Virus record (IMG/VR): IMGVR_UViG_3300033148_005125
Coordinates: 1 to 54,791 of that record
Length of the DNA: 54,791 bases
Direction: 5' to 3' (one strand)
DNA from: a virus
Lineage: Duplodnaviria; Caudoviricetes
A model generated the notes under the pieces. The model was not told the origin of the DNA. It worked only from the letters and a program-made list of their open reading frames with translations, and did no database searches. Numbering within the stretch: the first letter of the stretch is position 1; every line of letters starts with the position of its first letter. Positions 4,161 through 32,459 of the stretch are shown here, one piece after another. The position numbers were made by a program, and so were the translations under genes.

Positions 4161-4170
4161 AATAATTAAC

Positions 4171-5959: not shown

Positions 5960-5984
5960 TGATTTAGGGTATTTAGTTTATAGG

Positions 5985-6014: not shown

Positions 6015-6040
6015 AAAATAATTATGGGAGGAATATAGGC

Positions 6041-6289
6041 ATGGCAAGTAATAATAAAAGTAAGGAAAGAATGAATCGGTTAGTGGCAGATGAAGTTACT
6101 AAAATGTTTGAACATGCTCTTGATTATGCACAAGTTGCCTGCCCTACTGCAGATACATATAAAGTTCTAAGATCAAAAATTCTTAGAGTAGGTAATAATT
6201 GTATAAGAAATATTAAAAGAAAAATAGAACATTATGATGTTGAATATAAGGATATCTCTGAGGATATAATAGAAATTCCTGAGAGATAA
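6041..6289 (+). CDS. hypothetical protein
   Basis: 82 aa; SD GGGAGGA upstream. Confidence 0.7.
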   Translation: MASNNKSKERMNRLVADEVTKMFEHALDYAQVACPTADTYKVLRSKILRVGNNCIRNIKRKIEHYDVEYKDISEDIIEIPER

Positions 6290-6324
6290 TAAATAAAAAG
6301 AAAAGGTAATGGAGGAGGTTTATA

Positions 6325-7095: not shown

Positions 7096-7098
7096 AAA

Positions 7099-8121
7099 AT
7101 GGATGTTACTCACGAAGAAACAGAGAAATGTCTATGTAAGATTTTTACAGGTAGTGACTTATTATATATTAAATATGGCGACGAGGATACTCATATTGAA
7201 TTTAGGCAGCCAAGCAATAATATCCGATTAAAAGCCAATATTGTTTATAATGAAGCATACGATAAAGCTATATCTGAAGGTATGTTGTCTACTGAAGATT
7301 TAAAAGCGTTGCTAAAAGAAAGAAATATTTTTACTCAAGAGGAAGAAGATCAACTTAACAGATTAGAATCAAAATTAAAAGGCCAAGAGGTTTTATTAGC
7401 TAAAACGATAGTTGTAAAAGCTAGACAAGACAGATTAAAAAAAATTGTGTCTGATTTAAAGAGTGAGATAAATGTTTTACAAGCTAAAAAAATTTCTATG
7501 CTGATGATGTCTGCTGATGCAAAAGCTGAGGAAGAAAGAACTTTGTATTTATGTTGGTCTTGTACATATAATAATGATACATTTGAATTGTATTGGAAAA
7601 CTTATAGGAATCTTTTGAAAGAAGATAATTTAGTATTTAAGGATGAAGTTTTATCAAAGTTTTTAAGGTTTTATAGGGGTGTAGATACTAAACTTATTAG
7701 ACATATAGCAAGAAGTAATTTATGGCGAATAAGATATATTACTAGTCAAAAGACGTCGGACCCTTTGTTTGGGGTACCAACGTCACAATATACAAATGAT
7801 ATGTTAAATTTGGCTTATTGGTCAAATTACTATCAAAATATTTACGAGATGCTTCCAGAAGATAGACCCCCAGATTTAATCATCGATGATGATGAAGCAT
7901 TAGATGCTTATATGCAGAGTTATTATGATGATAGAAGTAGGGAAAATGCGGCAAGGCGAAGTAAGGTTAAAACTAAGGGGAAACTATCAGCTTTTGATAA
8001 AGAGGAAGTAATCGTAACTCAATCGAATGAATTATATGAAGATATAAAATATGACAAACCAAGAGAAGCACGAAGAATTAAAAACAAAGCAGCAATAAGG
8101 AAAAAAACCAGGTCTGGTTAG
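7099..8121 (+). CDS. putative tail assembly chaperone (gpGT-like), paralog of the upstream gene with a C-terminal extension
   Basis: N-terminal ~190 aa align by eye to 6325..7095; extra C-terminal region (YEMLPEDRPPDLIIDDDEALDAY); immediately precedes the TMP. Confidence 0.55.
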   Translation: MDVTHEETEKCLCKIFTGSDLLYIKYGDEDTHIEFRQPSNNIRLKANIVYNEAYDKAISEGMLSTEDLKALLKERNIFTQEEEDQLNRLESKLKGQEVLLAKTIVVKARQDRLKKIVSDLKSEINVLQAKKISMLMMSADAKAEEERTLYLCWSCTYNNDTFELYWKTYRNLLKEDNLVFKDEVLSKFLRFYRGVDTKLIRHIARSNLWRIRYITSQKTSDPLFGVPTSQYTNDMLNLAYWSNYYQNIYEMLPEDRPPDLIIDDDEALDAYMQSYYDDRSRENAARRSKVKTKGKLSAFDKEEVIVTQSNELYEDIKYDKPREARRIKNKAAIRKKTRSG

Positions 8122-8184
8122 GAATGATAGGATAAGAATAATAATGTTTTTGGTTTAAACTAATGTTTAATGGAGGTGCTGTTC

Positions 8185-11100
8185 TTGGCTAAAGACGAAT
8201 ATACATTTACTTTCCTAAAGGGTTCTACACAATCTACAGGTGGTGGCGCAGCCAAAACTAAGTCACAAGCCGGTGATTCTTCTATGAAAGATCTTCGTAG
8301 AACCCTTGAAAAAATCTTTAGAGAAAGTTCTAAAGATAATTCCAATACACTTGCAAAATCACTAGAAAAAATAATTATAAAATTTGCTAAGATACAAACG
8401 CAAGTTAAAGGTACTGCTGCGTCCGCAGGCCTTAGTGGTGCTGATGCACGTAGAATAGCCAAAGAGGTAGCCTCTGAAATTGTTAATCAACAAATAAGAC
8501 AATTAGCCAAATCATTTCCATCAAAAACTACCACCACAAAACAATCAGATGATAAACTTATAAAGTCTATAGAAAGAAGTGCTGATAGACAAGCAAAAAC
8601 TATTATTGGTGGTCTTAATTCTATTTTATCTAGACATGGTGTACAGCTTGAAAACATTAAAGATTTAGAAAGAGCCATATCTGGAGCTGTAAAAAATGCT
8701 ATTCCTAAAGATACCAGTATGGGTATCAAAGAAATAGGTAGAGCAGTGACATCATTAAAATCTGGATTTAATGAAATAAACAAGCTTTCCAGACAAATAA
8801 TGTCTATGCGTAAAAGTGGCGGTGGTATAGATGTAAAAGAAATAAAAGAAATGATGAGTTCATTTCAAAAACTTAATAAAGATTTTAAACAAATAACTGA
8901 TTCTACTGTAAAAGCTGGTAAAGCAATAGAAAGTGTAACTAATGATGTTGTTGGGTTTAAGAAAAGTTTGTCAGAAGTAAAAAAAGCTGCTACATCAAAA
9001 GTACGTGGGGTTAGAGAGAGAGCTGAAGCAGATCCTTCTAAGTTTGCAAAAACAGCAGCTGTGGCTATAGGACAAACTTTAGAAAGAGCACTTCAAAAAT
9101 CACCTGGTTTTAAAGGAAGTGATTTAGAACGTAACATAAAAAAGTTAGGTGATAATGTAAAAGATATAGGGGATGTTTTAGATAAATTTAAAAAAGTACA
9201 GGCTGATATAACTACATCAACTAAAAAAGGTAAAATATCTATTGATACAAAGGCAATTATTGGTTTATCCAAAGACTTAGGTAATTTACCAGATAAAATT
9301 GGAGTTGATATAGATACTAAAGGATGGAAAGATTTAACTAAAGGTCTTGAAAATTTTGCAAAAACCGCAGATTTTATAATAAGTTCTTTAAAAAAATTAA
9401 AGGTATCCGTTGATGTAGATACTAAACCAATAGAAAAGAAAGTTGAAAGTGCAGTAAAAAGTGGTGTAGAAAAAGGGTTTTCAAATAATATCAAAGCAAT
9501 AATGAAAGAAGCAGATACTTCTTTTAATAAAGTTATAAGTGAAATGCGGGTTATGTATAAAGCATTACCCAAAGAAAGCCCCATAAGATCACGTTTTGAA
9601 AAAGCAGGCAAAGCATTAACAGTTGCTAAAGAAAGAGGAGATTATCTAGAGATAGCTAAACGTATTACTGGAATACAAGATGTTGTTAAAGCTCCAGTTC
9701 TAAACAAAGCTATAAATGAGTTAAAAGGTGTTATAGTAGAAATTACATCAGAACTTAAAGGGGCTGGTGTTGATGATGTATCAGGCGCATTAAAGAAAAG
9801 TGGTAAAGCTGTTGATGAGTTAACTAATACCATACTTAAAAAGAAAAAAGAGATAGATCAATTTCCTGCTAAAAAGTTTAATATATCTGGAGCTATGGAT
9901 AAAGTTAAATTTTTACAATCTACATCCAGACAATTCCCACAAGAATATATAAAACCAGGAAAAGAGTTTGAATTAAAGGGCACTGATATAGGATTTGGTG
10001 CAAATGTTAGACAGGCGGTAAAAGAAAAAGCAGATTCTTTAGCTAAATCTTTAGGGGCACTTGAACAAGATTTAATATCTGGTTTGGAAGCAGGTCCTGG
10101 ATTTCAGAAGGGCGGTTGGAAACTATTAGATAAAGAACTTAAAAGAGTGGGCCAACAATGGACTTTACAGATGGCCCAGATTGGTGGAGAAGAAGGAATT
10201 GAAGGTTTATTAAAACAATTAGATAAGACTTATATAAAAATCAAAGATCCAAAAAAGTTGTTAGCAGAGTATAAAAGTAAAAGAAAAGAAAAAATAACTA
10301 ATGTTGTAAAAGAGGATTCAAAGAGAGCAACAGAGGTTGGTAAATGGCTTATTCAAAGAAATGAAGATGATATAGAAAAATTATCTTTATCTAAACCTAT
10401 GGCAGGAACAATTAAAAAGTCACTTAAAACCATTAAATCTAAATTTAAAGGTACTGAAGTTGGCGAGATCATGCGTTCAGAATTAATTAGTAGTTTAGGA
10501 ACATCTTTAGAGGAGGTATTTAAAGAGACTTTCGCCGCAGATTTAGTTAAAAAAGAATTGGCTACTGATAGGGGTATAAAAGGACCACTTGTAAGAAGAA
10601 TGGCTATCCCAGCAGCAAAACTTTCTGAAACAGGTACTGCCACATTTAAAACTAGATATGGTACTGAGAGGGCTTTACCTAAATTTGCTACTTATAAAAC
10701 AGGGTTTGAAGAATTATATGATAAAATGACTAAACAACAAGCTATGGTGGGCGAGGAGGCTCGTAAATTTCAAAATGCTATAATTGATATAGGAATGAAG
10801 CCAACTAGTCCAAAAGCTTTTTCAAAAGCAAAAGATGTTTCTAAAGATATGTTAACCAGAATGGCTAAAACTGGTCCACAGCAGTTAGATTTTGTTATAG
10901 AGCAGTATAAAGAAGCTGCTACAATGATAGGTGCTAAAAGACAACAGGCTGGTGTGGGTTCTATAGAAAGTTATGAGAAGAAAATAAGTTCTGGGATAAA
11001 TAGTTTTAGAAATAAATATACTGATTTACCAGAGGTATTTGACAAATTCGTGGTTGAAATGGAAGATCTTGGTCTTTCTGCATATGATGTAGTTAAGTCC

Positions 11101-14100
11101 CTTGAATCTATAAAATTTGAAAATGTTTATGATATCTATAGAAAAGTTTTAAAAGGTAAAGTTTATAAAGGAAAAGGTGGTAAAAAAGATGTATTTGAAG
11201 GTCCTACCCCAGAAGTGTCACAATACCCTGGATCTAGACGAAATCTTAGACGGTTTGATCAGGCTGTTGCTCAAGTAGAACAGTTAATGCCTATAATAGA
11301 AAAGGCTAAGGTTAAAAGAGGTAAGCATCAGGAAGAAGTTACCACAACATTTTTTCAAACATCACCTATGTATAAAGGTTCCGAAAAAGAACTTAAATTT
11401 GATGCTGATAAACAAAAAGATAAAATATTATCTATAAATATGAATTTGAGAGACATGCTAAAAGAATATGAGACTTTGTCTCAGTCTGGCGCTGAAATGT
11501 CAATGCAAACAGCAAAAAGATTAGAACGATATGCTGGTGTTCCAAGGGGAGTAAAAACAATTTCAACATTAGGTCCTCCAGAAGAACAGGCATCTAAATA
11601 TACTGAATTTAGAGGTGGTAAGTTTGCAGAGAAGGCTAGATCTTTAGCACCATTAGAATCTACAGCTATAAAATTATATACAGAAAAACTATTGGATCAG
11701 GCACCGTTCGGTGAGTTTAGTAGACTTGGTAAACAGATAGGTTATGTAAACAGTGCTATGTCAAGTTTGAGTGATGATGCAAAGAAAGTTTTTAGTGTTG
11801 CTGGGATTACTACAGAAGAACCCAAATTTAGAACAACAAGAGAGCGAGAACTTACTTCTGCTGGTAGATACGGTTCTACTGGTTATGGTTTTAATGTTAT
11901 AGCAGAACTTAAGCATTCTGCTGATACTTTTGAAGATCAAGTTGTGGTCTCTGGCAATTTAGCAAAAGCATTAACACAAGCTGTTAGTACTTTAGTTAAA
12001 CCAGGTCCTAAAGGTAGATTAGGTAGTATGGCCGGAGCTCATGTTACTGATATTGAAAAGGGCCAGGTGTTAAGAGATACCACAGTTAAAGAGATAGGTA
12101 AAGTATCCAAACAATTTATGGAGATACTTGGTGTACCACAAGAATATAAGAAAGAAGCTGATAAAGCTTTAATAGAAACTGTAAAAAAAGAAATAATTAA
12201 TGTTAGGGGTCAGGATGTAGAAATTCAGAAGGCTCAATTAGCTGAAGTTTTTATGAATTATTTCGGTAGAAAGTTCACCACAAGGTATGGTTCTAAAGGT
12301 GTTAGTATAAGTAAGGAAGATTTAGGTACAGCTAAAATACCTAAATCAATGGGCCAGTTAGCGTCTGATATTATAGGTAAAATGGAGGAAGAAGGTAAGG
12401 CTCCTAAATTTGGTAAATTAAAAAATATTGCTGGTATACAGAAGGAATTAGTAGAATCAGGTAATAAGTTTATGATTAGTATGTTTAGTGATGCTACTAG
12501 TCAAGTTGCTAAAGGATTAGGTGTAGAAGAAGAAATAGAGAAACAAGCTAAGATATATAAAATGTTTACAGGTCTTATAAAACGGGTTTATGGTGAAGAT
12601 TTACCAAAAGATGTTGAGGGTATACTTAAGTTAAAAAGTCTTTATAAACAAAAAGTTGGTGGAAAGCTTTTTGAAGAAAAACCTATTGATATAAGAATAA
12701 GTGCACGTGGTGCTATTAAACGTGGTTTACAACCAGAATTTATAGAAACCATGATGGGTAATGTTATAGGTGCAGGAGCTAAAGAAACTACAGTTCAACC
12801 AAGGATTGAAAAAGGCGTTTATGAAAAAATATTAGGTACTAAAGGAAAAGCAGGGATGCTAAGCAGATATAGCAAAGCACTGGGTTTTGAGTCCGCCGGA
12901 CCTAAAAAGAAAGAAATAGAAAAAGAACTTTTTAAAACATTTAAAGCGGCCGGCAAAACCGATGAAGAAGCTAAAGTTATGGCTGAGAGAGCAGCCGCTT
13001 TTGAAGCATCCGCTAATTATTACACAACAGTTAAAAATGAATATGGAAAAGCAACTAAAAGTATAATAGGGCCTAAATTTGTTCAGATAATAGAAGAACC
13101 ACATGAGACAGAAAAGTGGTCTGCTAAAGGAGTAAAGGAGTTAAAGAAAGGAGCTAAAATAAATTTAGCTGCTTACTCTGCTTATGCTGGTGTTTTTGGT
13201 GAACAATCTTCTTTAATGAAGCAAATAAAAGGTGGGACTACTTTAGAGTCTAAAAAACAGTTTGAATATATAAAAGCCTTAGAAGCAATGGCTGTAAAAG
13301 GCCCAGGCAAAGAGATGGCAGATGCTTTAATGCAGGGTGTTAGAAAAGTTCCTTTGGGAGAACTACAAGAATTTGAACCACGTACAGGAACATTCAGTAA
13401 GGAGGATCTTGAAAGAAGTTTAAAAGGAACAGTTCTAGATATAGAAAAATATGCATCTGATTTTGCTGTAGATTTACCAGCTGGCAAGGGTGCTAAAGGT
13501 GAGATGTTAACAAAGCCTTTTTATATCCCAGGGCCATTAGCTAGACAAACATACCCAGAAGAATTATTAGCGGGCGAATATGGCATGGATGAAATAGCAA
13601 GATACTTACAGATGGTGATTAACACTGCTAAGGAAACAGAAGCAGCATTCTCTGGTGAAGGATCTAAAGTAAAAGATGTAAATAAGGTTATTAGAGATAA
13701 AGTTTTATCCGCTATAGCAAAGGCACAAGAAGGTGGTGTTACAGAAAAAACAGATGTACTTAATAAACTTTGGCAGGGTTTACAAGATATTGAAGTTGAT
13801 TTTGCTTTCAGAAAAGAAATGGGAGCTCCTGAAGGTACAACAGAAAAACAATATATAACTAAATATTTTGAAAAATTTAAAAGTAGATATGCTCAAACAC
13901 CAGGCAAAACTGAAGAAGATGCAATGTTGCAAACTATTCGTAGGATGGGTGATATATTAGTAGGTCCTAAACTAGGAGCTAGAAAAGATATAGCGGCCAC
14001 TAAACCAAGGTTAGCTAAAGAAGTAGAAGCTGGTACTACAGCAGCTTTTGCAAAAAGATTGGGTATAGATATAACTGATGATGAATTTATAGATAAAAAA

Positions 14101-23100: not shown

Positions 23101-26100
23101 AAAGAAAATTTAGCAATTGAGAAAAGCAGGTTGAAACTAAGAAAAGGTGTAGCTGGTTATCAAAAAGGTATCCCAGAAGGTTTAGATGATATAGATCTTG
23201 GCGTTCAAAAATTTTCTGATTTAACTGTAAAACAAAGAGCACTTATGGCAGGACCTGAATATGGTAAATCAGCTATTAGATTTAGAGAATTGGAAACTAG
23301 AAAGGGTGCTGGAGAAGAACAAGTTTACGGTATAGATAGAGCTTTAGTAGCATTAGAGAATATAAGACAAGTTTCTAAGGGGTTTGGTACTTCTTTAAGT
23401 CCTGAAGACATGAAAAAATATACTGAAATAATAGCTAAAACTGATGATACAGGTGCACAATCTATAGCGATAGAGACCAGTAAGGTTGTGGATAACACTG
23501 CTAGCACTGTTGATAGATTAGATCAAATTTTAGAAAATATGGGAGATGTTAGTGTATTAGAAAAACAATTAGAAAATATAGGTAAAATGTCTCCTAGTTC
23601 TATGGTTAGTATGATGGAGAAGGTAGCTAGAGTTAGGGAGAAGAAACTTGAAACTGGTGATAAGGAATCAGTTAGGGCCACTAATAAAACTTTAGATGTA
23701 TTGGTAAATAGTCTTGTTGAACAAGTAGGAATTAAAAAAGCTATGTCTATGGTTGATAATAGTTTTACATTATTTTCTAAGAGGTTTAAACCAGAAGAAT
23801 TTACACAAAGAGCTTTTGGTGGATTAGATTTTAAACAGTTTACAACCAGTATGAAAGAAAATTTACCAACCCAGAGATCATTTTTCAAAAGATTTTTAGG
23901 GATTGGTGAAAATATATCTGGATTTGATAAAGAAATAAAACCATTGGTTAAATTACAAGATAAAAATAATAAAGAACAATGGGTTAGTTCTAAAGAAATG
24001 ATTAAATTGTCTGCTGCCATGGCTGTTTGGTCTTCTTTTAATAAACACCAATCAAGTAGAGTTATAAAAGAATTAGAGGGCCAGAAAAAAGAGTATAAAG
24101 TTGGAAGTAAGGAAAGAGTAGCTATAGAAAAAGCTATAGAAAAAGAAAGAACAAGCGGTATAATGGAAGGGAGAGGTGGGGAAAATGTCTGGAAATTAGC
24201 ACAATCATTTTCTTTCTTAACAGGCACTGTTGGTATGTTTGCTAAAGAATTAGGTATGACTGAAAGACAAATAAAAACATTAGGTGGTGCTTCTGCTGGA
24301 TTATATGCTGGTTTAAAATTAGCTAGTAAAATTACTGGCGATAAATTACCAGAGTCTGCTAAAAAATTTGAAGCTAGTTTAAAAGAAGCAGCACTCACTG
24401 GTAAAAAAGGTCCTTTAATAACTGCTAGTGCTGAGTTAGCTAAAGATGCTAAAAAAATGTTTAAAAAAACTGGCGCTATCTCTGAAGAAGAGTATAAAAA
24501 AACAGCAACAGATAAGGATTTTAAACAGTTTAAAGACGCTCTGGATTCGGCAGTTACGAAACAAGGTGATATGTCTGATAAAGTTGGAGACTTTTTAAGT
24601 AAGGCTAGAAGTCCAAAGGTTGTAGATGAAAGATTTTTAACAAAAATATTAACTACTTATTTAGCAGCAACAGCTGCTGGATATGCTGCCCAAAGAACTG
24701 AAGATGAAACACGATTAGCCACACTTAATTCTCAAGCTGAAAAAGAAGCAAAATTATTCGTGGAGATTGTTGAAAAATACCCTAAAGCTGCACAAAAAAT
24801 GATAGATGCTAGAAAAGAATTAGTAGATAATATAGAAAAAGTAAAACCAGTTCCCACCACAGAGAAATCATTAGTGATGGATACTGAAAAAGAACGGGAA
24901 AAAATTGTTGGTGATCTATCTAAAATTAGAAAAGATATTATAAGTGAACATGAAAAAATGAATAGTGAGTTATCTAAAGTAGCTAAAGAAATGGCTAAAT
25001 TAGAAATAGCAGAAAAGTTTAAGATAGAATTAGAGGAAATGGAACGTGCTATTAAAGATATAGATATTGCTTCAGCCACTCAAAGAGTTTTAGAAACGAG
25101 TTTGTCTGGATTTACTGGCGGTTCTGTTTTTGGTGGTGGTACTATAAGACGTGATTTGGGAACCCAGTGGTCTGGTGATGTTTCTAATATGATAGAAGAT
25201 CGTTTTGAGGATATGTCAAACACACTTAGATTTCCTAAATCTGCTGGTAAGTTAGTTGGTAAATATAAACCCCAATCTGTAGATTATGGTATTAGAGGAA
25301 TAAGTGAAATGACGCCAGAACAGTATATGGTTCATACTGGAAAAAGAGTTGCTTATAAACCATCATTAGGTCAGTTTTTTGGACAAGAAGTTTCAGGGCC
25401 TCAGCGCGGAGAAATGGGAATTGTTACATTATTAAAAGATGTTCTCTCTGGAAAAACTTTAGGTATATCTAAAGTAAGAACTGCTGAAGACATGTTCAGC
25501 AATCTTGAAAATATGCAGAAAAAAAGAGAGGTAACAGAAGCTAAATTTATAGAACATATGTCTAGAAGAGAGGAGCTTAGAGGCAGAAAAGGGAAATTAT
25601 CTGAAACAGAAAGTGCCGAATTAGATAAACTTGATAATATTATAGAATCGCTTGGTGATGGTTTAGTTTCCATGGTAGAAGATATAGCTAAAGCTAAAGA
25701 TGCTTTGAAAACAAGTTTGGAGGAGGCTGCAGATGTTATAAGACAAAGAGTAACAGCTTTTGATGCTTTAAGAGATCTTAATGAATCTAATATAAATAGA
25801 ATGTACGGTAATACAGCTGTTGTGAATAGAGGTTTAGCTGGTTTTGGTGGTGGTTATGATCTACCAATGGGCAAGAGAGAAATGTCATTACAACAACGTA
25901 TTTTTACTGACGCAACTAGCGGTTTCAATGAAAGGACCAATGAGTATGCATATAAATTAAACACTTTAATTCCTAGTATGTCTCAAAATATATCAGAACT
26001 CACACAGATGAGAGAGGATGTACCGGTTGGTGACACTGACAGATATAATGAATTAACCAAACAAATAGAAAAGTCAAAAAGTGCTATGGATAAAATGATT

Positions 26101-29100
26101 GAGAGTACTAGATCTATGGGTGAGGCTCTATTTGTGGCTAATAAATTTGCTGAAGTGATGTATAAGTTCAAAGATGCTATTGAGGATATACAAATAAATG
26201 AAACTGTGGAAGGTTTATCAGGTTTTAAAGGTTTTAGAGAAAGCATGGATAAAGTTTTTGGTGGTGCCCACCCATTAGCCCCAGTACAGGTGTCCCCTGA
26301 AGAGGAACGAAGGGCTGCACAGGTTGGTATAGAACTTAAAGATTTACGTTCTACCCAATTTGATAAGATGGAAGCAGAATCTAGATATAAATTAAGGTAT
26401 GGTGGTCTAAAAGGTAAAGATTATAGAGAAGCAACACAACAATATTTAGACATACCAGAACTTAAAGCTAGAGCGGAAGAAGCTTATAAACAAAGACAAG
26501 AAGTGTCACAACTTCAAAGACAAGCGGCGCCTTTTGAAGAAATATTGAAAATGTTGCAACGTTTATCTGTATCTGAAACCATAACTCCTGAAAGAAGAGG
26601 AGAGGTAATAGCTATGAGGGATTCAATAGCTAATGCTATAGATGGTTTTGGGGATATAATGACTCAACAGCAAAAATTGGATGAGTTAGAAAAAAACAAA
26701 GGAATGTTTTCTAAGGAAGAGTATACACAAGTTAAAAAATCAATAGAAGAAGGAGCACCAGAACAATATAAAGGTTTACAAGCTTTCAGTCAAACTGGAC
26801 TTATGAAAGAATTTGGCGCTGAACTTCAAAAAATGATGCAAGTTACACCGAAACCAGATGATTTAGAAAATATTTTTGGTAAAAGTTTGGGTGATGTTAC
26901 TTCACGTCAAGATACGCAAATAAAAATATTAACTCAGATAGCTCAAAAAGGATTTGGTCTTTCTCCAGAAGACATGGGTATAGTTTCTCCAAAAGACATT
27001 GATAAATCAGGAGTGTTTGAAACTATAATAAGGACACTAAGAAGTGTTGGCAGTGTTTGGGATAAAAAGGCTGGTGGTGGTAGAATTTTTGGGGCTGGTG
27101 GTCCACGCGAAGATAAAGTTCCAGCTATGCTAAGTCCTGGTGAATATGTAGTAAGAGCAGCGTCTGCGCAGAAGTTAGGTTATGGAGCTCTTGAACATAT
27201 GAATCAAAAGGGAGAAGTTCCAGGATTTGCTGAAGGCGGCCGCGCAAAAAGATTTAAAATAGATCAACAGTTTGGCACTATAGAATATACTGCTTATGAA
27301 AAATCAGAAGTTAAAGAAGAAAAGAAAAAAGAAGAATTAGTTGCTAAAGAATTAATGAAAAAAACTAAAATAGGTAAAACACTTTCAGATAGACAAAAAA
27401 GGTTGAAAGAAGCTTTAGGTTATGCGGGTGGTGGTGCTGTTGAAACATTAAGATCTATGGGCATGTCAGAAGAAGATATTAAGAGAGAACTTGGTGGTCT
27501 TGAAGAACCACTGTTAGGTCCTGGTGATATCATAGGTATGGCCGCAGGAGTTGGTAAATTAGCATTAGGTTTAGGTAAAACTGTTGTCAAACAAATAGTT
27601 AAAAAACCTAAAACTTATGAAGAACTTCTCAAACCTGGAACTAAAGATGTGATTGATTTTATTAAGAATAGGTTAGCTGAACCAGGTGATTTAGTTACTG
27701 AGAGCAAAGCAGCAAGAGATGCGTTAAGTAGTGGAAGGGGCGATTTCCTAAGAAGGCAGGGATTACTTCCTTCTAAGAAATTTTCTAATATAAAGAAAGA
27801 ACTTCCTGAATTTACAGGTTTTGCGGACGGTGGTAAAGTTTCTTCTGAGGAAGTTTATGGTTTTATTAAGGAAGCCGGTAGAAAACATAATTTGGACCCA
27901 GAATTGTTGAGAAGAATGGTAGGGGTTGAAAGTGACTTTGATCCAAGAGCTGTGTCTAAAAAATCAGCTATAGGACTTGCACAAGTTTTATTATCAACTG
28001 CTCAAGGAATGGGTTATAAAGGTGATGCTGAAGGACTTAAAGATCCTCGTACAAGTATAATGTATGGAGCACAATATCTTAGACAAATGCTTGATAGATT
28101 TGGCAGCATTGAATTGGCTCTTGCAGCATATAATGCTGGTCCTTATGCAGTTGAAAAACATGGAGGAATCCCTCCATATAAGGAAACAAAAAAGCATATA
28201 CCTAAAGTTTTAAAAGGTTATAAAGGACCTGTTATTTTTCCAGAAGAAAGAAAAACAGGGGCTATGGGGGCACCTAAAAAACTAAAACCAGCAGCTGCTA
28301 CGACAGGGACTATGGGAGCACCTTCTAAAACTGGTAGAATGGGAAGAGGTTTAAATATACCTGTAAAAGACAAAGTTAGATATTTTACAGATGAGGGTGA
28401 AGTGGATAAAGAATTGTATGAAGCAACACTACATGGTGGTTCAGCACAACATAGGACTGATGGATATGAACCAATTTTGGAAGGTAAATCTGTAACTGGT
28501 TTTAAAAGAACTGGCACATGGGATGTAGAGGGTGAAAAGGAATGGGAGGGAAGACAATTAGTTGCTTTAGAGGAAAGATCTAAAAAAACAATAAAAGCTT
28601 TAAATGCTGGAGTTTATGATTATGATGTTGGTACACCTTTAATTGTTCCAGAGAAAAAAATTCAACTAGAAAAATGGGTAGATGATAAAGAATCAATGGA
28701 TTGGATAAATTCTGTGGTTGAAGCCAGACGTAAAGAAAGACAAGAAATAATTAAATCTTACCAATCTGGTGGTTTAATTACAGGAATAGATAAAGAGGAA
28801 GAAGAAAGATTATATAAAGGTTTTGGCCCAAGAATGTATGGTAGAGAAACATCTAAAAGAGTACAAGATACTTTTAGAACAGATGCTTTAGCTAAAGCAA
28901 AACAAAGAGTTAGTGAGGCTACAGCAGATACATTTGAACCTAAAATTGGTGAAACAAAGCGTATAACTCCAGGTAAGGCCAGTGATATAGAGTTTAGAGG
29001 GTATAAAATACCAACACCAATATCAAAAGCCGGTAAAGACCAAATATATGGTGGAACTATAACACCAGGTCCTAAAGTTAAAGGAGAACTATACGAGCTT

Positions 29101-30507
29101 AGGCGAATGCAGGAAAAACTTAAATTTATAGTTGGTAATAAGGAAGAAGTTTATAAACAAAAAGGTTATAATGAAGAACAAAAAGAACAGTTTGATAAAT
29201 ATATTGGATCTCAAAACAATGAAATAAATGATTTAGTTAGTAAAATACAAACTGGCCAAAAATTAAGTGATAATAGAGCATGGGACCCAGAATACAAGAG
29301 GAGTTATTTCCCAGATGTAGAGAAGTATCATTCGTTAAAAGAAGGTTTTACGTTTCCTGAAGGTATTTATAGCACCATAAAGAATAAACAATTAATAGAA
29401 AAATATAAAGGTTTTGAAAAATTAAATGTATTACCATCAGATCCACATAAGAAAATAATTGGTTTGATTAACGAAGGAAAGAAAAAAGAAGCCAAAGAAT
29501 TATATGATGATATGTTGAAAACAAGAAAGACTTTTAGTGATCAAGATCTTAGACGTTTTGATTCAATGTCTTTTGGTGACAGACGTAAAAAGAGTGATGA
29601 TGAATTAGCTAAGTTAAGACTACTTACAGAAGCTACTAGAATTAAAACCTTAGCTGAATTAACGGGTAGAGATCCAAACACAGGTACTTTAGATATTTTA
29701 CGTAAACTTTTTCCAGAGGCAAAAACCGATGATGAAATTTATAGATTATTAAAAAACAAAAATGAATTATTTATAAAAGAACGCGTTGATAAAGCAGGTT
29801 TAAGTGAAAAGACAGCAGCTGAAAATAAACACCATGGCGGAGAAATTAAAAAAACAGGTAATGTTTTTATGCAAAAAGGTGAAATGGTTTATCCTAAAGC
29901 GTTTGCTATGGGAGGACCTGTTTATGGTGAATTAGCTAAAGAAGCTACCACTCAGTCTTTAAATAGTATGATGGAAATTAGATTGGATGCTACTGCGCTC
30001 AATAATGCAATTAGTAAATTACAAACATTGGAATTAAAAATAGAAGATAAAAAACTTGAAATTGTAGAGCTTCCTAAAATAGAAGTTGACACTGGTAATG
30101 TTAATTTAGTAGTAAATGGTGATGAGGCTGCAGCTAAAATACGAGCAGCTGTTGAAGATATAACGATAGATGTTAATTCTACTGGGGCAGTTGGCGCGGA
30201 AGAATTAAAAAATGTATCTGATCAACTTGAAAATAGAATAAATAGTTTAAATGTTAATGTAGAGGATTTACAAAATAATTTTAAGATTATATCCTCTGCC
30301 GGAGAAAATATAGATATAAATGGTTTACTTAATGCTAAAATTAATGAATATACTTCTGACATTAACAGGGATATAAGTGAAGTTAAGTCTGATATGTCTA
30401 ATTTGGAGTCTAAAATATCACAAAATCAAAATAGAGTGAATGTGGTTGCTACTGAATTGGATCGTAAAATAATGCACTTACAAAATTTAACTGGTAGGGG
30501 GATTTAA
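8185..30507 (+). CDS. giant tail tape-measure protein fused to a two-barrel RNA polymerase, a PD-(D/E)xK nuclease and a lytic transglycosylase
   Basis: Single uninterrupted ORF (track start 8170). The likelier start is TTG at 8185, because SD GGAGGTG lies at 8172-8178. TMP position, TMP core motifs, and the enzyme motifs listed as sub-features. Confidence 0.9.
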   Translation: MAKDEYTFTFLKGSTQSTGGGAAKTKSQAGDSSMKDLRRTLEKIFRESSKDNSNTLAKSLEKIIIKFAKIQTQVKGTAASAGLSGADARRIAKEVASEIVNQQIRQLAKSFPSKTTTTKQSDDKLIKSIERSADRQAKTIIGGLNSILSRHGVQLENIKDLERAISGAVKNAIPKDTSMGIKEIGRAVTSLKSGFNEINKLSRQIMSMRKSGGGIDVKEIKEMMSSFQKLNKDFKQITDSTVKAGKAIESVTNDVVGFKKSLSEVKKAATSKVRGVRERAEADPSKFAKTAAVAIGQTLERALQKSPGFKGSDLERNIKKLGDNVKDIGDVLDKFKKVQADITTSTKKGKISIDTKAIIGLSKDLGNLPDKIGVDIDTKGWKDLTKGLENFAKTADFIISSLKKLKVSVDVDTKPIEKKVESAVKSGVEKGFSNNIKAIMKEADTSFNKVISEMRVMYKALPKESPIRSRFEKAGKALTVAKERGDYLEIAKRITGIQDVVKAPVLNKAINELKGVIVEITSELKGAGVDDVSGALKKSGKAVDELTNTILKKKKEIDQFPAKKFNISGAMDKVKFLQSTSRQFPQEYIKPGKEFELKGTDIGFGANVRQAVKEKADSLAKSLGALEQDLISGLEAGPGFQKGGWKLLDKELKRVGQQWTLQMAQIGGEEGIEGLLKQLDKTYIKIKDPKKLLAEYKSKRKEKITNVVKEDSKRATEVGKWLIQRNEDDIEKLSLSKPMAGTIKKSLKTIKSKFKGTEVGEIMRSELISSLGTSLEEVFKETFAADLVKKELATDRGIKGPLVRRMAIPAAKLSETGTATFKTRYGTERALPKFATYKTGFEELYDKMTKQQAMVGEEARKFQNAIIDIGMKPTSPKAFSKAKDVSKDMLTRMAKTGPQQLDFVIEQYKEAATMIGAKRQQAGVGSIESYEKKISSGINSFRNKYTDLPEVFDKFVVEMEDLGLSAYDVVKSLESIKFENVYDIYRKVLKGKVYKGKGGKKDVFEGPTPEVSQYPGSRRNLRRFDQAVAQVEQLMPIIEKAKVKRGKHQEEVTTTFFQTSPMYKGSEKELKFDADKQKDKILSINMNLRDMLKEYETLSQSGAEMSMQTAKRLERYAGVPRGVKTISTLGPPEEQASKYTEFRGGKFAEKARSLAPLESTAIKLYTEKLLDQAPFGEFSRLGKQIGYVNSAMSSLSDDAKKVFSVAGITTEEPKFRTTRERELTSAGRYGSTGYGFNVIAELKHSADTFEDQVVVSGNLAKALTQAVSTLVKPGPKGRLGSMAGAHVTDIEKGQVLRDTTVKEIGKVSKQFMEILGVPQEYKKEADKALIETVKKEIINVRGQDVEIQKAQLAEVFMNYFGRKFTTRYGSKGVSISKEDLGTAKIPKSMGQLASDIIGKMEEEGKAPKFGKLKNIAGIQKELVESGNKFMISMFSDATSQVAKGLGVEEEIEKQAKIYKMFTGLIKRVYGEDLPKDVEGILKLKSLYKQKVGGKLFEEKPIDIRISARGAIKRGLQPEFIETMMGNVIGAGAKETTVQPRIEKGVYEKILGTKGKAGMLSRYSKALGFESAGPKKKEIEKELFKTFKAAGKTDEEAKVMAERAAAFEASANYYTTVKNEYGKATKSIIGPKFVQIIEEPHETEKWSAKGVKELKKGAKINLAAYSAYAGVFGEQSSLMKQIKGGTTLESKKQFEYIKALEAMAVKGPGKEMADALMQGVRKVPLGELQEFEPRTGTFSKEDLERSLKGTVLDIEKYASDFAVDLPAGKGAKGEMLTKPFYIPGPLARQTYPEELLAGEYGMDEIARYLQMVINTAKETEAAFSGEGSKVKDVNKVIRDKVLSAIAKAQEGGVTEKTDVLNKLWQGLQDIEVDFAFRKEMGAPEGTTEKQYITKYFEKFKSRYAQTPGKTEEDAMLQTIRRMGDILVGPKLGARKDIAATKPRLAKEVEAGTTAAFAKRLGIDITDDEFIDKKLDQLRRAKVTYMSALAKSLLGKSGAVQSTFFERKAPAVMGKAINAVTDRTSELKEFSNTLRKLASEAGFEKYIEAFGSIANVVDEIGAEHANIISKYKKSGVPVLKQEELGIPESMAKKMPVTFEKRYEMTSGMPILTNKPKAATTVESNLSKMLDYKKELEEGLSKVDIKSDVNAIKDFIEQELVPHVETMRFPFTGVSSLQPYKAKVLKEEDYPKGKFAYAVPGVPEMRMATEGDKTGFVEVVKKLEGIRDDFIKAREGLHTTSEAAGMEADPSRVKELTDKIGMLDEAISNVLPRYTAIQQKLDFDGDEIEAHSGVLAGARRDIKKHFDTLNKSTDSIETAWRQVRGFEETTPGATSSRFPFADLLTYFESKWKPEKGYEFLKRPEITEKLEFLKPSEKLDILSGGEPQKIGMLLKDITSRQVTESGPREEIFATIDKNINEGNNTSKALLEAIKMLDSDFSKLIEAGVNESLYQQKYSDAIIGQLYKLHTGPDVEAVYRMQRVSESRMGFGGGMIAPEEGGYRTNVSDTFRKRWPTGLKMLGKVSPESEISTFMNEISRFAQQKGMDVKLAGEKPVGGEMTSLLGKGTEGMDILLEKIGLAGEKANDDYKQLKEFADTSSKVIEKRLGTLPTEAIKKEVSGLRKVRGMPEITMGTRKQAVDEAVKLIGFEGFLRELSKQIEEDAVEALTAQLEAMPEHKRKKRMSRKSYLSTKEFAEEEIQTSEKIGKKSPTGISTSKIMQQRAPLYGFRSSSATQDDIVKAYRDTAEPVVAPKYLKGDTALKYEKAQEVALSIARSLKEVGQMRPGGAYSDLVLSTIDNMYKEQAKKESTLNDLRQEGYNIGIKRETSDIPQRMFEEGMPDIPSFIRELIDPSNTAANSLQELKKEVDALSLLAGVPPLSAETRKQIKIDMPELGAAARAKYPEIVEESEIAKSERESKISEFTDLLIQKAQAVAQMDRAIASLISSKGFETKLLPPKEDVKRALNETIKATIKAPIGRPTIVEPSTTRELRQGIEKASDMFFSKTQEVSRMPVVGGPTGPSDIGPSGTLAGRLSDEVVRVHIQSVQEGIGLSFTPAGAMQDVIESRKPDRKGYTDELKELQRRSAGVTQTLEETYANVYRASALSGGGIYGSKKGSREQQQVESIKEYMRTGKKEVPPKAEAMAFEGTVIHKKEQDRLIKEIEAQTGGKEKYDVERYVKYTSSMAKDITGHVDLIKQRLDEDTQEYVDNKIIDIKTVSDKMVKRFKDLGVEKFSDLPELKKKGGLTEYDVQKLEDVASQLNLYIAAVAQANSVAADSLKGEAWFYDRDDIKNIAKVSFDFDPNRLKKDIDAVSKARKSIVSEYGKDAFAKATHVIDLEKADAKRKAGVEPLSTKEWKRFENISKEHRKMVEDPSSDYWKREKDVKPRSIDKERLREEKGSQRARFESYTIPEAPVMGEAVYDQLENLKLVHKAAKDYQLRSKGINMKTVGTDIHESLAPIIENVQEIGPQGNAFSEAIEDLKFAGMIGGGEISKAWKYYRIALGDFYIKQAEEAKKLESDLQQQGELGGANEAYQQAERTINDMKKRMSQSLGKPSDIYTEMRRYISPDIMQQLGLYLTPEQLITKSKGSLGDDEKLDKIFKEGIVGDVLEGGKLTAPIEKVRDALKGISDLDEDMVKVLTDANKLKKVGPEIQEAWNFEKLTDRVTKLRASLETFLRFRLQEDDDVVGRKNLEDTLKLLKSLENQYSSLGRVQKEGPAGWGQMGLVKVPKFVEPKQQYAMHMRNVQKTREYFGKIEEKGGPKAGERYSYMFKVIGESGDTIKNAVYDFRKYGDAVNFAGEKVGVFKEDQRDMFEFMQEGGRTFRSAIMRAIRWGAASRIVYGGWQKLGQSIGLLADIETGMANLRMVMSPLETDFGGLGKSAIGFAKQYGVPMTDVLKSMKIFAQQGLKQEEVVDRTQTATLASNVTTLSATEATEALTAAMKVFRQEGESSMKFMDAWSEVEAKHAITSGDMANALKKAASAGKNAGFSFDELNGVVAAIGAVTRQSGKEVGTAMRFIFRRLTSEKGPKELAKIGIPVLTDTGELRKGFDVLDDLSKSWKDLTSAQRMNIAQAIGGTRQYNALLVLMDNWGEALSAIKDSTNSKGSAERRNLEIMKTFTKQMAQMKQAATEVYMSFGKITFPAAKVGLKGLKFLLEAFTEVPGVIKGAMIAISGFFIYMSKGADIIDYFFERWRGGKSIIGNVMKEIGNEWTMGMSEMFGTGALEQNLKTIGKGKKIKIPVGVFDVSPKGVAQERVVERSVPQGKKLGDFHSVLGKTTFLLKQTGMAYNDFIGDVIKGSGDLAKDMGGPFEYISKKMYALESMFKKLTSTMVNPEMIITALETGGFVDLIPGIIGTVGIVASKATGDATKAVSKLSDFAGDKFGQTGKSFVEGFASGNTDMVKALAPLGATIIALYPALKSLSEYYMKTTQSAQDYEKAMYGVRRANESQLKGIRELMSGYSGLESSMADVAKVSDPNVKKRRQELGTFESPLLTMSSIIKKSRDLSNNLADSNINLVVGYDKFGNAILNVTGNLKDYLKTLENIKVKEVAKVEIDIAAKFITDLTEIEGPEKWKYALKNLLKEAPAFGEVLAKGIKTSPAKAMNVVTERLNDMLALKKKFPMSTAFDKDINKHQANLKKVRSGFSATYSDFRRVLSDITTKGLGKDEIAALLGTKELRKGYELMIEVEPRFNLKETKGKVEWQDVLGAEVMRRAFPSFAATFDATSVLTKARLETSGAVKREGKAMSGDVAFFMDSAADKYGIAGNQAVVSLKETTDGVFDWFITYFNSKTLKIEEKPFTEDLQGMVESIFPKNRIEEELSERVQSLNEFVAGASAGLRGLSAKDFKKDFGLGERFFSEIPTTTILQGPKGFVPSAAGGAGTFGQSPFQKDWKETTEQFFFKPMREYRLKADQLDKLKLEGLQGGEVTLAKGLYEELTKLQNTLKNNQVVLQYRAVFADLTKTLEEGTRALKENLAIEKSRLKLRKGVAGYQKGIPEGLDDIDLGVQKFSDLTVKQRALMAGPEYGKSAIRFRELETRKGAGEEQVYGIDRALVALENIRQVSKGFGTSLSPEDMKKYTEIIAKTDDTGAQSIAIETSKVVDNTASTVDRLDQILENMGDVSVLEKQLENIGKMSPSSMVSMMEKVARVREKKLETGDKESVRATNKTLDVLVNSLVEQVGIKKAMSMVDNSFTLFSKRFKPEEFTQRAFGGLDFKQFTTSMKENLPTQRSFFKRFLGIGENISGFDKEIKPLVKLQDKNNKEQWVSSKEMIKLSAAMAVWSSFNKHQSSRVIKELEGQKKEYKVGSKERVAIEKAIEKERTSGIMEGRGGENVWKLAQSFSFLTGTVGMFAKELGMTERQIKTLGGASAGLYAGLKLASKITGDKLPESAKKFEASLKEAALTGKKGPLITASAELAKDAKKMFKKTGAISEEEYKKTATDKDFKQFKDALDSAVTKQGDMSDKVGDFLSKARSPKVVDERFLTKILTTYLAATAAGYAAQRTEDETRLATLNSQAEKEAKLFVEIVEKYPKAAQKMIDARKELVDNIEKVKPVPTTEKSLVMDTEKEREKIVGDLSKIRKDIISEHEKMNSELSKVAKEMAKLEIAEKFKIELEEMERAIKDIDIASATQRVLETSLSGFTGGSVFGGGTIRRDLGTQWSGDVSNMIEDRFEDMSNTLRFPKSAGKLVGKYKPQSVDYGIRGISEMTPEQYMVHTGKRVAYKPSLGQFFGQEVSGPQRGEMGIVTLLKDVLSGKTLGISKVRTAEDMFSNLENMQKKREVTEAKFIEHMSRREELRGRKGKLSETESAELDKLDNIIESLGDGLVSMVEDIAKAKDALKTSLEEAADVIRQRVTAFDALRDLNESNINRMYGNTAVVNRGLAGFGGGYDLPMGKREMSLQQRIFTDATSGFNERTNEYAYKLNTLIPSMSQNISELTQMREDVPVGDTDRYNELTKQIEKSKSAMDKMIESTRSMGEALFVANKFAEVMYKFKDAIEDIQINETVEGLSGFKGFRESMDKVFGGAHPLAPVQVSPEEERRAAQVGIELKDLRSTQFDKMEAESRYKLRYGGLKGKDYREATQQYLDIPELKARAEEAYKQRQEVSQLQRQAAPFEEILKMLQRLSVSETITPERRGEVIAMRDSIANAIDGFGDIMTQQQKLDELEKNKGMFSKEEYTQVKKSIEEGAPEQYKGLQAFSQTGLMKEFGAELQKMMQVTPKPDDLENIFGKSLGDVTSRQDTQIKILTQIAQKGFGLSPEDMGIVSPKDIDKSGVFETIIRTLRSVGSVWDKKAGGGRIFGAGGPREDKVPAMLSPGEYVVRAASAQKLGYGALEHMNQKGEVPGFAEGGRAKRFKIDQQFGTIEYTAYEKSEVKEEKKKEELVAKELMKKTKIGKTLSDRQKRLKEALGYAGGGAVETLRSMGMSEEDIKRELGGLEEPLLGPGDIIGMAAGVGKLALGLGKTVVKQIVKKPKTYEELLKPGTKDVIDFIKNRLAEPGDLVTESKAARDALSSGRGDFLRRQGLLPSKKFSNIKKELPEFTGFADGGKVSSEEVYGFIKEAGRKHNLDPELLRRMVGVESDFDPRAVSKKSAIGLAQVLLSTAQGMGYKGDAEGLKDPRTSIMYGAQYLRQMLDRFGSIELALAAYNAGPYAVEKHGGIPPYKETKKHIPKVLKGYKGPVIFPEERKTGAMGAPKKLKPAAATTGTMGAPSKTGRMGRGLNIPVKDKVRYFTDEGEVDKELYEATLHGGSAQHRTDGYEPILEGKSVTGFKRTGTWDVEGEKEWEGRQLVALEERSKKTIKALNAGVYDYDVGTPLIVPEKKIQLEKWVDDKESMDWINSVVEARRKERQEIIKSYQSGGLITGIDKEEEERLYKGFGPRMYGRETSKRVQDTFRTDALAKAKQRVSEATADTFEPKIGETKRITPGKASDIEFRGYKIPTPISKAGKDQIYGGTITPGPKVKGELYELRRMQEKLKFIVGNKEEVYKQKGYNEEQKEQFDKYIGSQNNEINDLVSKIQTGQKLSDNRAWDPEYKRSYFPDVEKYHSLKEGFTFPEGIYSTIKNKQLIEKYKGFEKLNVLPSDPHKKIIGLINEGKKKEAKELYDDMLKTRKTFSDQDLRRFDSMSFGDRRKKSDDELAKLRLLTEATRIKTLAELTGRDPNTGTLDILRKLFPEAKTDDEIYRLLKNKNELFIKERVDKAGLSEKTAAENKHHGGEIKKTGNVFMQKGEMVYPKAFAMGGPVYGELAKEATTQSLNSMMEIRLDATALNNAISKLQTLELKIEDKKLEIVELPKIEVDTGNVNLVVNGDEAAAKIRAAVEDITIDVNSTGAVGAEELKNVSDQLENRINSLNVNVEDLQNNFKIISSAGENIDINGLLNAKINEYTSDINRDISEVKSDMSNLESKISQNQNRVNVVATELDRKIMHLQNLTGRGI
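10590..15830 (+). other. single-chain beta/beta'-like (double-psi beta-barrel) RNA polymerase region within the giant ORF
   Basis: Ordered beta-like motifs: IPAAKLSETGTATFKTRYGTER (10606), GFNVIAE..DTFEDQVVVS (11887-11952), GRKFTTRYGSKGV (12265), PIDIRISARGAIKR (12682), IIGPKFVQIIEEPH (13063). Then beta'-like motifs: PFYIPGPLAR..DEIARYLQMVIN (13516), LLGKSG (14155), LGIPESMA (14428), RFP (14677), DFDGD (15019-15033). Confidence 0.88.
17470..18140 (+). other. PD-(D/E)xK (RecB/Cas4-like) nuclease domain within the giant ORF
   Basis: RAS.. GTVIH (17617), E (17701), ITGHVD (D at 17755), IIDIKT (D 17815, K 17821), QLNLY (17953): the complete canonical motif series. Confidence 0.8.
19650..20720 (+). 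other. phage tail tape-measure core domain (TP901-like)
   Basis: DIETGMANLRMVM, AKQYG, FAQQG, VTRQSGKEVGTAMRFIFRRL, GELRKGFDVLDDLSKSW, IAQAIGGTRQYNALLVLMDNW: classic TMP core. Confidence 0.9.
27850..28220 (+). other. SLT-family lytic transglycosylase domain within the giant ORF
   Basis: HNLDPELL...VESDFDPRAVS (catalytic E at 27928), AIGLAQV, GAQYLRQMLDRFG, ALAAYNAGP, GGIPPYKETK. Confidence 0.93.
28255..28350 (+). repeat. short coding repeat TG(A/T/R)MG x3
   Basis: KTGAMGAP / TTGTMGAP / KTGRMGRG; DNA acaggggctatgggggcacct vs acagggactatgggagcacct. Confidence 0.6.
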
Positions 30508-32447: not shown

Positions 32448-32459
32448 GGAGGATAATTA

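Follow-up and report, generated by a model that had tools for sequence, protein, structure and literature searches.

Fusions of a virion RNA polymerase (RNAP) with the tape measure protein (TMP) of a phage tail have been described from Thermus phages, with gp96 of phage P23-45 as the studied case and further examples in P74-26, G20c and TSP4 (Chaban et al. 2024, PMC10770324). Of the 5,002 residues of gp96, the first 1,200 form an active RNAP, with the motif DFDGD at residues 779-783, which transcribes the pre-early genes and is found in virions as part of full-size gp96 (PMC10770324). This RNAP has no clamp, and its flat shape is proposed to permit passage through the tail channel; a second RNAP, gp64, is made after infection (PMC10770324). 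A giant gene of this general design lies in the stretch of DNA analysed here, the 54,791 nucleotides of IMG/VR virus record IMGVR_UViG_3300033148_005125, termed the window. The gene (8185..30507, plus strand) probably encodes the TMP of an uncultured jumbo phage with a non-contractile tail. By analogy with gp96, the whole protein can be read with fair confidence as a virion TMP whose back half is the ruler and whose front half carries an RNAP and a nuclease as cargo, to be ejected at infection. A preliminary description of the window had cited gp96 as a precedent for an RNAP fused to a TMP, and the precedent is real, as the main text of the 2024 paper shows (PMC10770324).

The giant gene is a single open reading frame (ORF). 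From an in-frame ATG at 8170, from which residues are numbered throughout, 7,445 codons run to 30507 on the plus strand without a stop; a chance frame of such length is excluded because about 7 % of random codons are stops at 33 % GC. The likely start is the TTG at 8185, which has a ribosome-binding site (GGAGGTG) 6 nucleotides upstream. This start and the resulting 7,440 residues, both given in the preliminary description, hold because the N-termini of homologs align there. Base composition along the ORF is even. Outside the giant gene, every ORF of at least 150 residues is on the plus strand, and the only three minus-strand ORFs of this size all lie inside it.

The family to which this protein belongs is known from metagenomes only. 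A search with residues 1500-3400 returned 49 proteins of 4,271-7,998 residues, at 26-68 % identity and on contigs of up to 325 kb, and an exhaustive HMMER search with residues 1650-2849 returned 95 representatives, all of them giants or giant fragments with the match at a similar position throughout. IMG/VR holds 45 loci of the family, and the giant gene is present in 44. Searching 50,697 deposited phage records by tblastn with residues 901-3900 gave no match. Five large virus records contain open frames of 7,488-7,760 residues, and one of these records (G003), at 268,764 bases, is rated 100 % complete by CheckV. The relatives' genomes measure about 230-270 kb, and the window's record, with a completeness rating of 21 %, is about one fifth of such a genome. 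To our knowledge, giants of 7,400-8,000 residues are among the largest phage proteins. When domains were surveyed by BLASTP across the 61 giants longer than 6,800 residues, the beta-like part of the RNAP, its beta'-like part and the TMP core were each found in 61/61, and the nuclease in 52/61. RNAP, nuclease and ruler are thus the core of the family, and the two ends take differing accessory domains.

This family also bears on whether the frame was created by misassembly. Three DNA runs from two studies (sediment and subsurface metagenomes) yielded short contigs that are 90-99 % alike to the gene and fall in 29-30 of 30 bins, and raw reads of a fourth DNA run gave no match that could be placed on it. 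Among the public runs listed as containing the gene, none was of RNA. No contig from these public runs spans the gene; they represent related strains only and speak neither for nor against the assembly, so the read mapping that the preliminary description had proposed as a chimera check was not decisive. The check succeeds through the continuity of the family instead. In 41 of the 44 IMG/VR loci that carry the giant gene, the frame is unbroken to the end of the fetched DNA, and no misassembly or stop is seen between 15100 and 19650, the interval about which that description had been wary. A frame put together by chimeric assembly, or one that reads through several genes, has a vanishingly small probability: nothing in its favour was found, apart from the shortness of the public contigs, and it would have to account for the same architecture and order in 49 giants, 95 representatives and 45 IMG/VR loci, for the long frames of the five large records and for the even base composition. 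Because the family holds the same uninterrupted frame in independent loci, the giant frame is a real gene, not an assembly chimera, and belongs to a tail module that a lineage of jumbo phages conserves.

The front half of the protein is, by its motifs and profiles, a single-chain two-barrel RNAP of the cellular type, with a core at residues ~1160-2330 in which the beta-like half comes first; polymerase activity is predicted. No other part of the N-terminal half is as conserved as the RNAP region; across 57 giants conservation peaks at residues 1351-1400 and is high from ~800 to 2750. The beta-like half, the putative second double-psi barrel, spans residues 1160-1720 (11647..13329, plus strand) and contains FEDQ (1254-1257), GRKFTTRYGSKGV (1366-1378), which includes GSKGV at 1374-1378, and PIDIRIS..G..KRGL (1505-1520). 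The corresponding consensus blocks of the family are FEDQ..isG.LA at residue 1254, GRKftTR.G.KGV at 1366-1378 and PId.RIS..G..KRGL at 1505; FEDQ and K..GV (E, D, K, K) are invariant in 32/32 sequences. The beta'-like half, with a clamp-like region and the catalytic double-psi barrel, is placed at residues ~1712-2333 (13303..15168, plus strand) by structure alignment, Pfam and motifs, namely RFPFTG (2170-2175) and QKLDFDGD..H (2281-2294), the latter containing the single DFDGD (2284-2288); the family consensus reads R.PFTG at 2170 and QKLDfDGD.i..H at 2281-2294. All three catalytic aspartates are kept in 69/69 giants longer than 5,500 residues (D[FY]DGD in 68, DHDGD in one), and the giants that keep DxDGD span 26-68 % identity. 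We take these blocks to recall the cellular RNAP signatures FED and GNKGV of beta and NADFDGD of beta'.

Conservation extends to both sides of this core. Ahead of it, residues 600-1160 (9967..11649, plus strand) contain the block PAA..G..F.T..G..FAT..TGFE and are present in 60/61 giants; hhalign of this region against a profile of stand-alone RNAPs, described below, was not significant (E 0.25), and an Atlas look-up gave no usable lead. Past the catalytic barrel, residues 2334-2760 (15169..16449, plus strand) contain the blocks DAI..QL.K.HTG..E..R and QKGMDVK(H/L)AG (2544-2553). The conserved blocks at 2455-2490 and 2544-2553 are candidates for the bridge helix and the trigger loop. The preliminary description had assigned RNAP motifs to residues 810-2550: the motifs are present, with the core at ~1160-2330 and conservation reaching ~2760, and residues 810-1160 are the part not tied to RNAP.

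The affinity to cellular RNAPs is also evident from comparison with stand-alone two-barrel RNAPs of the same group of jumbo phages. These enzymes of ~1,100 residues, with near-canonical beta and beta' motifs, are encoded at L045:6152-9349, L053:1378-4632 and L054:1291-4596 (minus strand), and the first of them matches Pfam RNA_pol_Rpb2_6 (E 5.4e-11) and RNA_pol_Rpb1_2 (E 8.6e-5). Like the giant, they have a beta-like barrel followed by a beta'-like barrel and the blocks FEDQ, G.KGV, RFP..G and LDFDGD. Unlike the giant, they are free-standing, compact and close enough to cellular RNAP for direct matches to Rpb2_6 and Rpb1_2, and they have no counterpart as long as the ~890 residues that separate the barrels in the giant. 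With hhalign, the beta-like profile of the giants (A2) matched the stand-alone RNAP profile with a probability of 96.9 % (E 1.9e-10), in an alignment of 183 columns that starts ahead of FEDQ and extends to GSKGV, and the beta'-like profile matched it at 67 % (E 5.2e-5) over RFPFTG and LDFDGD. When residues 1200-2399 of 32 members were scanned one by one against Pfam, RNA_pol_Rpb1_2 was found in 18/32 (best E 6.3e-4), and no other family was found in more than three members.

A structure model agrees with the assignment of the beta'-like half. Residues 1200-2399 were modelled with AlphaFold2 from an alignment of 32 sequences, and the model was compared by VIA-align with 48,161 PDB representatives. 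The best match was human Pol I A190 (7ob9_A; Z 11.5, 286 residues aligned), with Pol II Rpb1 (Z 10.9), QDE-1 (Z 10.8) and archaeal A' (Z 10.8) among the top rows. Further largest subunits at the top came from vaccinia virus, African swine fever virus, Mycobacterium tuberculosis (beta'), Pol III, Pol IV and phages AR9 and phiKZ, the last two being non-virion RNAPs; matches to RNAP largest subunits had Z 10.5-11.5 over 240-288 residues. The QDE-1 alignment covers model residues 175-1120 and is the only row that reaches across both barrels. An isolated RNAP clamp domain (3qqc_A) aligned with Z 8.8 over model residues 489-810, and designed and VCP double-psi barrel domains scored Z 7.5-8.8. When Foldseek candidates were aligned in the same way, RNAP largest subunits filled 50/50 top rows (Z 10.5-11.4), and model residues ~513-1134 aligned with beta' ~24-504, clamp included (515-1132 in the case of E. 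coli beta'). The window RNAP is thus predicted to carry a clamp-like region of the beta' type. The N-terminal windows model as the folds that the preliminary description had led one to expect, namely a beta'-type clamp with a double-psi barrel and, further on, a PD-(D/E)xK nuclease. At the motifs of the beta-like barrel the predicted local distance difference test (pLDDT) score falls below 50, so that the profile match, and not the modelled fold, supports this barrel.

Several results weigh against the RNAP reading of the front half. The model is only moderate (pLDDT 73.5; predicted template modelling score, pTM, 0.49), and pLDDT is below 50 exactly at FEDQ, at GSKGV and where DFDGD begins. 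When the 1,200-residue model was searched against PDB with Foldseek, no match reached E <= 1e-3, and beta' chains crowded the weak rows. In a scan of the window protein against Pfam and PHROGs, made in eight overlapping pieces of 1,200 residues each, residues 1-3600 had no match, so that the window's own RNAP region is without a Pfam or PHROG family, and Rpb1_2 did not reach E 1. Neither phmmer with residues 901-2900, which found nothing in PDB, nor profiles A2 and A3, whose best relevant PDB match was Pol III RPC1 at E 1.8, did better. Sequence comparison of gp96 with known families was likewise weak, according to its authors (PMC10770324). Bridge helix and trigger loop were not identified in the giant, hhalign of residues 2290-3080 against the stand-alone RNAPs giving E 0.19, and in the candidate trigger-loop block, QKGMDVK(H)AG, a His that the family conserves is replaced by Leu in the window. 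The leucine, the two elements not identified and the poorly modelled active-site loops would also fit a dead relic, retained for a structural purpose, such as plugging or spacing the tail at its head-proximal end, in a phage that uses the host RNAP or a stand-alone one. Dead enzymes usually lose their catalytic residues, however, whereas here all 69 of 69 giants keep the three aspartates, and FED, R/K..G.KGV and RxPFTG show little or no variation over 26-68 % identity, in the most conserved region of the N-terminal half. A relic is therefore highly improbable.

As part of the proposed two-polymerase layout, a stand-alone RNAP is encoded besides the giant TMP-RNAP in the large records G002 and G003 (1,088 and 1,109 residues). 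By analogy with gp64 in P23-45, it is a candidate for the non-virion partner of the giant. G001 (89 % complete) and G004 (72 % complete) yielded no stand-alone RNAP, which counts against such a layout.

The second enzyme of the front half is a nuclease. Residues 3080-3340 (17407..18189, plus strand) are, by fold model and motifs, a PD-(D/E)xK nuclease of the RecB/lambda-exonuclease type, and cleavage is predicted; the preliminary description had located it correctly at about residues 3100-3320. Its conserved residues are H3154, E3178, G3193, D3196, D3216, K3218, Q3262 and Y3266. In an alignment of the window with 27 relatives, conservation is complete or no lower than 90 % at E3178, D3196, D3216, K3218, Q3262 and Y3266, and the blocks read GT..H, an invariant E, (I/V)(T/S)GhxD, DIKT and SQ.N.Y. 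This series (H, E, GxxD, DxK, QxxxY) is that of the RecB family. PDDEXK_1 is matched by 5/28 members (best E 3.7e-4), and the nuclease profile found the Cas4 structure 4r5q in PDB (E 0.0049) on the right motifs. The AlphaFold2 model of the domain (pLDDT 94.6, pTM 0.91) matched 18 PDB chains by Foldseek at E <= 1e-3, all of the RecB/lambda-exonuclease branch, including AdnA (2.6e-5), a DinG-fused nuclease and lambda exonuclease (1.1e-4; TM to target 0.55), as well as LHK-Exo, Cas4, RecE and MGME1. A Cas4-type cysteine cluster is absent from the sequence and from the alignment. Lambda exonuclease, RecE, AdnA/AddA and Cas4 share with the window nuclease the fold (Foldseek probability 1.00) and the motif series, with a TM to target of 0.51-0.59 for lambda exonuclease, LHK-Exo and Cas4. 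Unlike the RecB-family nucleases compared, the window nuclease is embedded in the chain of a tail protein.

The back half of the protein, residues ~3825-7445, is by its family matches an ordinary, if very long, ruler of the TP901 type. The TMP core (residues 3825-4475; 19642..21594, plus strand) includes PF10145 (PhageMin_Tail, TP901 type) at residues 3884-4081, with 100.4 bits against a cut-off of 33.2 (E 1.6e-28) and positions 2-201 of the 201 of the model aligned. Nineteen TMP PHROGs cover residues ~3700-4700, the best being phrog_4211 (residues 3825-4475, E 5e-80). The core, which the preliminary description had placed at about residues 3830-4180, has a median identity of 62 % across the 61 giants and is followed by two hydrophobic segments (4166-4185 and 4348-4367). 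At the thresholds used, neither Pfam nor PHROGs has a family that matches residues ~4476-6297 (21595..27060, plus strand), the presumed ruler part; its stretches are kept by between 44 and 61 of the 61 giants, with identities of 26-37 %. Next comes a short C-terminal TMP motif at residues 6298-6359 (27061..27246, plus strand; GG.I.G.GGP..D..PA.LSPGEYV...), which matches phrog_25241 (E 2.3e-9), phrog_973 and phrog_3547, all TMP families, and is found in 56/61 giants.

The genes upstream may point in the same direction. A conserved tail module (4355..8121, plus strand) consists of a candidate tail tube gene of 534 residues (4355-5959), proposed from an Atlas lead only (Phage_tube_2 / YomU_Tube, score 0.92), and two small ORFs (6325-7095 and 7099-8121), candidates for assembly chaperones by synteny. 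Of 43 loci, 42 have the tube-like gene ahead of the giant, and all 43 have each of the two small ORFs there. Neither Pfam nor PHROGs gave a match for the neighbours at 311..8121 and 30507..33041. These unassigned structural genes, with a tube assignment that is an Atlas lead only, leave room for a protein that does not determine tail length: some other giant ejected or internal virion protein with a TMP-like domain, perhaps of a contractile or unusual virion, as virion RNAPs are fused to large non-TMP proteins in crAss-like and N4-like phages (PMC10770324). Such a protein is nevertheless very improbable, given a PF10145 score three times the cut-off, the 19 TMP PHROGs, the C-terminal TMP motif and the conserved order of tube-like gene, two small ORFs and giant. 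The sheath Pfam model found no match in five records, one of them complete; this absence rests on that one model, in a phage whose structural genes match no Pfam family, and the assignment of a non-contractile tail is the weaker for it.

The two ends of the protein are its variable parts. Near the C-terminus, an SLT lytic transglycosylase domain (residues 6566-6675; 27865..28194, plus strand) scores 84.7 bits with PF01464 (cut-off 21.3; E 4.5e-24) and matches phrog_2013 'lytic tail protein' (E 1e-23), close to the residues 6560-6680 of the preliminary description. It contains GVESDF, GLAQV and AYNAGP, which we take to be the ES (catalytic Glu), GLAQ and AYNAG motifs of SLT domains. The domain was found in 0/61 other giants by BLASTP, and the last 2,000 residues of three further giants contain no muralytic Pfam domain. 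The four-function architecture that had been proposed is thus present in full in the window, with RNAP, nuclease and TMP core as family traits and SLT specific to this phage. At the other end, the lysine-rich residues 1-600 (8170..9969, plus strand) match no family and are found by BLASTP in only 27/61 giants. In one sub-clade (L019:6974-15973), a DEDDh exonuclease (RNase_T, E 8e-8) occupies residues 307-415 of the L019 giant, ahead of the RNAP, and PF00929 (RNase_T) is listed for 8/49 family proteins. Replacement of the PD-(D/E)xK block by RNase_T was considered and rejected, the L019 giant carrying both. The giants of L015 and L018 have no domain between RNAP and TMP core.

Taken together, these parts suggest how the protein may act. 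On the model of gp96, the protein would be incorporated into the virion in one piece and be released from the tail on infection, and the back half would measure the tail. The SLT domain, in this phage alone, would cut peptidoglycan at entry, and the C-terminal or hydrophobic part may help form a passage through the envelope. In studied siphophages the N-terminal end of the TMP is head-proximal. The N-terminal polymerase could accordingly be stored near the capsid, as the preliminary description had supposed for the enzymes; entering together with the front of the DNA, it would transcribe the phage's earliest genes independently of host RNAP, and the second, stand-alone phage RNAP encoded in related complete genomes would serve the later ones. 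The nuclease would act on DNA at entry, which may be that of the host, of a defence element or of the phage's own ends. The analysis itself shows the frame, the identities of the domains, the conserved catalytic residues, the family and its synteny; the place of the protein in the virion, its ejection and enzymatic activity, the genes transcribed and the target of the nuclease are what we infer from the analogy.

The term 'polyprotein' in the preliminary description implied processing, for which no support was found. If the protein were processed, the enzyme block would be cut off during assembly and would then either not enter the virion or be stored in its head or neck as separate ejection proteins, and the C-terminal ~3,600 residues would measure the tail. 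By the rule of 1.5 Å of tail length per TMP residue, this ruler part alone would give a tail of ~0.55 µm, as against ~1.1 µm with the enzyme part counted. A clamp-bearing RNAP may be too bulky for the tail lumen, and the clamp-like region, compared with the clampless, flat gp96 proposed to suit the tail channel, also tells against ejection of the intact chain. Moreover, the giant gene is interrupted in 3/44 loci, which suggests that its parts can be encoded apart. At L027:6365-25146, the beta-like and beta'-like parts are on separate ORFs (1,840, 311, 2,522 and >1,563 residues); L022:5331-24184 has a 4,530-residue ORF with another ORF directly after it; and at L003:6218-20743 the giant frame stops after 4,842 residues. 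These interruptions may be natural split forms, or they may be sequencing errors. Against processing, the frame is continuous in 41/44 loci, which argues for selection on the fusion, and neither a protease domain nor a conserved cleavage motif was found, although no search was aimed at cleavage motifs. Virions of P23-45 contain the RNAP as a portion of gp96 at its full size (PMC10770324). A processed protein is on balance unlikely, and ejection of the intact chain, ruler and cargo together, remains the preferred reading.

If this reading is true, the consequences reach beyond the window. Only one phage group, that of Thermus, has been shown to inject an RNAP fused to its tail ruler. The present family would be a second, much larger lineage, whose polymerase and ruler both lack sequence similarity to those of the Thermus phages and whose chain also includes a nuclease. 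A fusion that arose twice would point to a general strategy for host-independent early transcription, and such proteins would be natural scaffolds for delivering enzymes into bacteria. More tentatively, and with a little less than an even chance of being right, this widespread jumbo phage lineage may independently have made its TMP a modular injection shuttle, with the clamp-bearing RNAP and the nuclease fixed and a DEDDh exonuclease at the N-terminus or an SLT near the C-terminus swappable. Enzyme-ruler fusion would then be a recurrent answer to the question of who transcribes the first gene, and a full clamp could be carried, in conflict with the idea that only a flat polymerase passes the tail.

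The rest of the window contains several further features. The motif TTAACTAACCT(C/A)T, with the core TAACYT and a short inverted repeat after it, lies just past stop codons in true intergenic gaps; the intergenic TTAACTAACCT sites are 4163-4195, 46605-46640 and 48219-48255, with another at 43145-43160. TAACYT occurs eight times in the gaps of the window, compared with 2.0 expected, and upstream of the homolog of the tube gene in 15/33 distinct related loci, compared with a background of 9 %, with the long form in 9 of the 15. A phage RNAP may use the motif as a promoter, or else it may be a terminator. Among the structural genes, a 363-residue ORF (48290-49381) has a C-terminal Phage_endo_I domain (T7 endonuclease I-like, E 3.4e-7) and a weak helix-turn-helix match. 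Two adjacent ORFs of 406 and 908 residues (39180-43139) carry Big_1 or invasin-type Ig-like domains and probably encode tail fibre or decoration proteins, and an ORF of 1,558 residues (49876-54552) matches no family. GC skew is strongly positive (0.15-0.34) over the whole window, 1-54791. No tRNA gene was found in the window, nor any direct repeat of at least 40 nucleotides, hence no terminal repeat.

The concept of a TMP-RNAP fusion was published in 2024 (PMC10770324), and this was the only report of one found in the literature; PMC12619734 and PMC13585406 proved to have no bearing on such a fusion. No description of the present lineage, of a clamp-bearing polymerase, of a nuclease cargo or of modular ends was found, with the proviso that the supplementary RNAP survey of that paper, which was not covered, may list it. 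Virion RNAPs are also carried in large ejected proteins other than TMPs, as in gp66 of phi14:2, a crAss-like phage, and in N4 vRNAP (PMC10770324). In these, as in the window protein, the polymerase is embedded in a very large protein, delivered at infection in their case; unlike the window protein, the carriers are not TMPs. The virion polymerase of N4 is of the T7 type. TMPs with a muralytic domain are another partial parallel: mycobacteriophage TM4 Tmp, in work attributed to Piuri and Hatfull in 2006 (cited in PMC12619734), reportedly has one. TMPs of the TM4 type resemble the window protein in having a peptidoglycan-cleaving domain in the C-terminal part; they have no polymerase or nuclease and are several times shorter.

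Direct comparison with gp96 gave little at the level of sequence. The RNAP-core profile aligned with gp96 residues 1-1200 at E 0.19 and over an irrelevant stretch, PDB sequence searches that included the deposited gp96 fragments found no gp96 match to the window RNAP, and the best BLASTP match between the TMP portions of the two proteins had E 0.35. The stand-alone RNAP profile found only the DFDGD barrel in gp96 (probability 78 %, 70 columns). Neither gp96, gp64 nor gp66 was among the best 50 rows of either VIA-align search, which does not show that the folds differ.

The likeness to gp96 is thus one of design. Both proteins have an RNAP with two barrels and DFDGD on the N-terminal side of a giant TMP, in one chain, with a muralytic domain further along it, and the two-RNAP layout of P23-45 has its parallel in the second, stand-alone two-barrel RNAP of the relatives G002 and G003. 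There are also differences. DFDGD lies at residue 779 of 5,002 in gp96 and at residue 2284 of 7,445 in the window protein; gp96 has Peptidase_M23 and no PF10145, whereas the window protein has PF10145 and SLT; gp96 is clampless, whereas the window RNAP, in a model of pLDDT 73.5, aligns with the beta' clamp; and the phages differ in size, at ~260 kb for the jumbo phage and 84 kb for the P23-45 type. The window protein also adds a PD-(D/E)xK nuclease, and the word 'nuclease' occurs 0 times in the main text on gp96 (PMC10770324). Given the differences in both halves, the clamp-like region of the RNAP and the additional nuclease, the fusion probably arose independently of the Thermus phages, although a very old common origin with gp96 may lie behind the two. 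By analogy, then, the window protein would work like gp96 and is not a member of the gp96 family.

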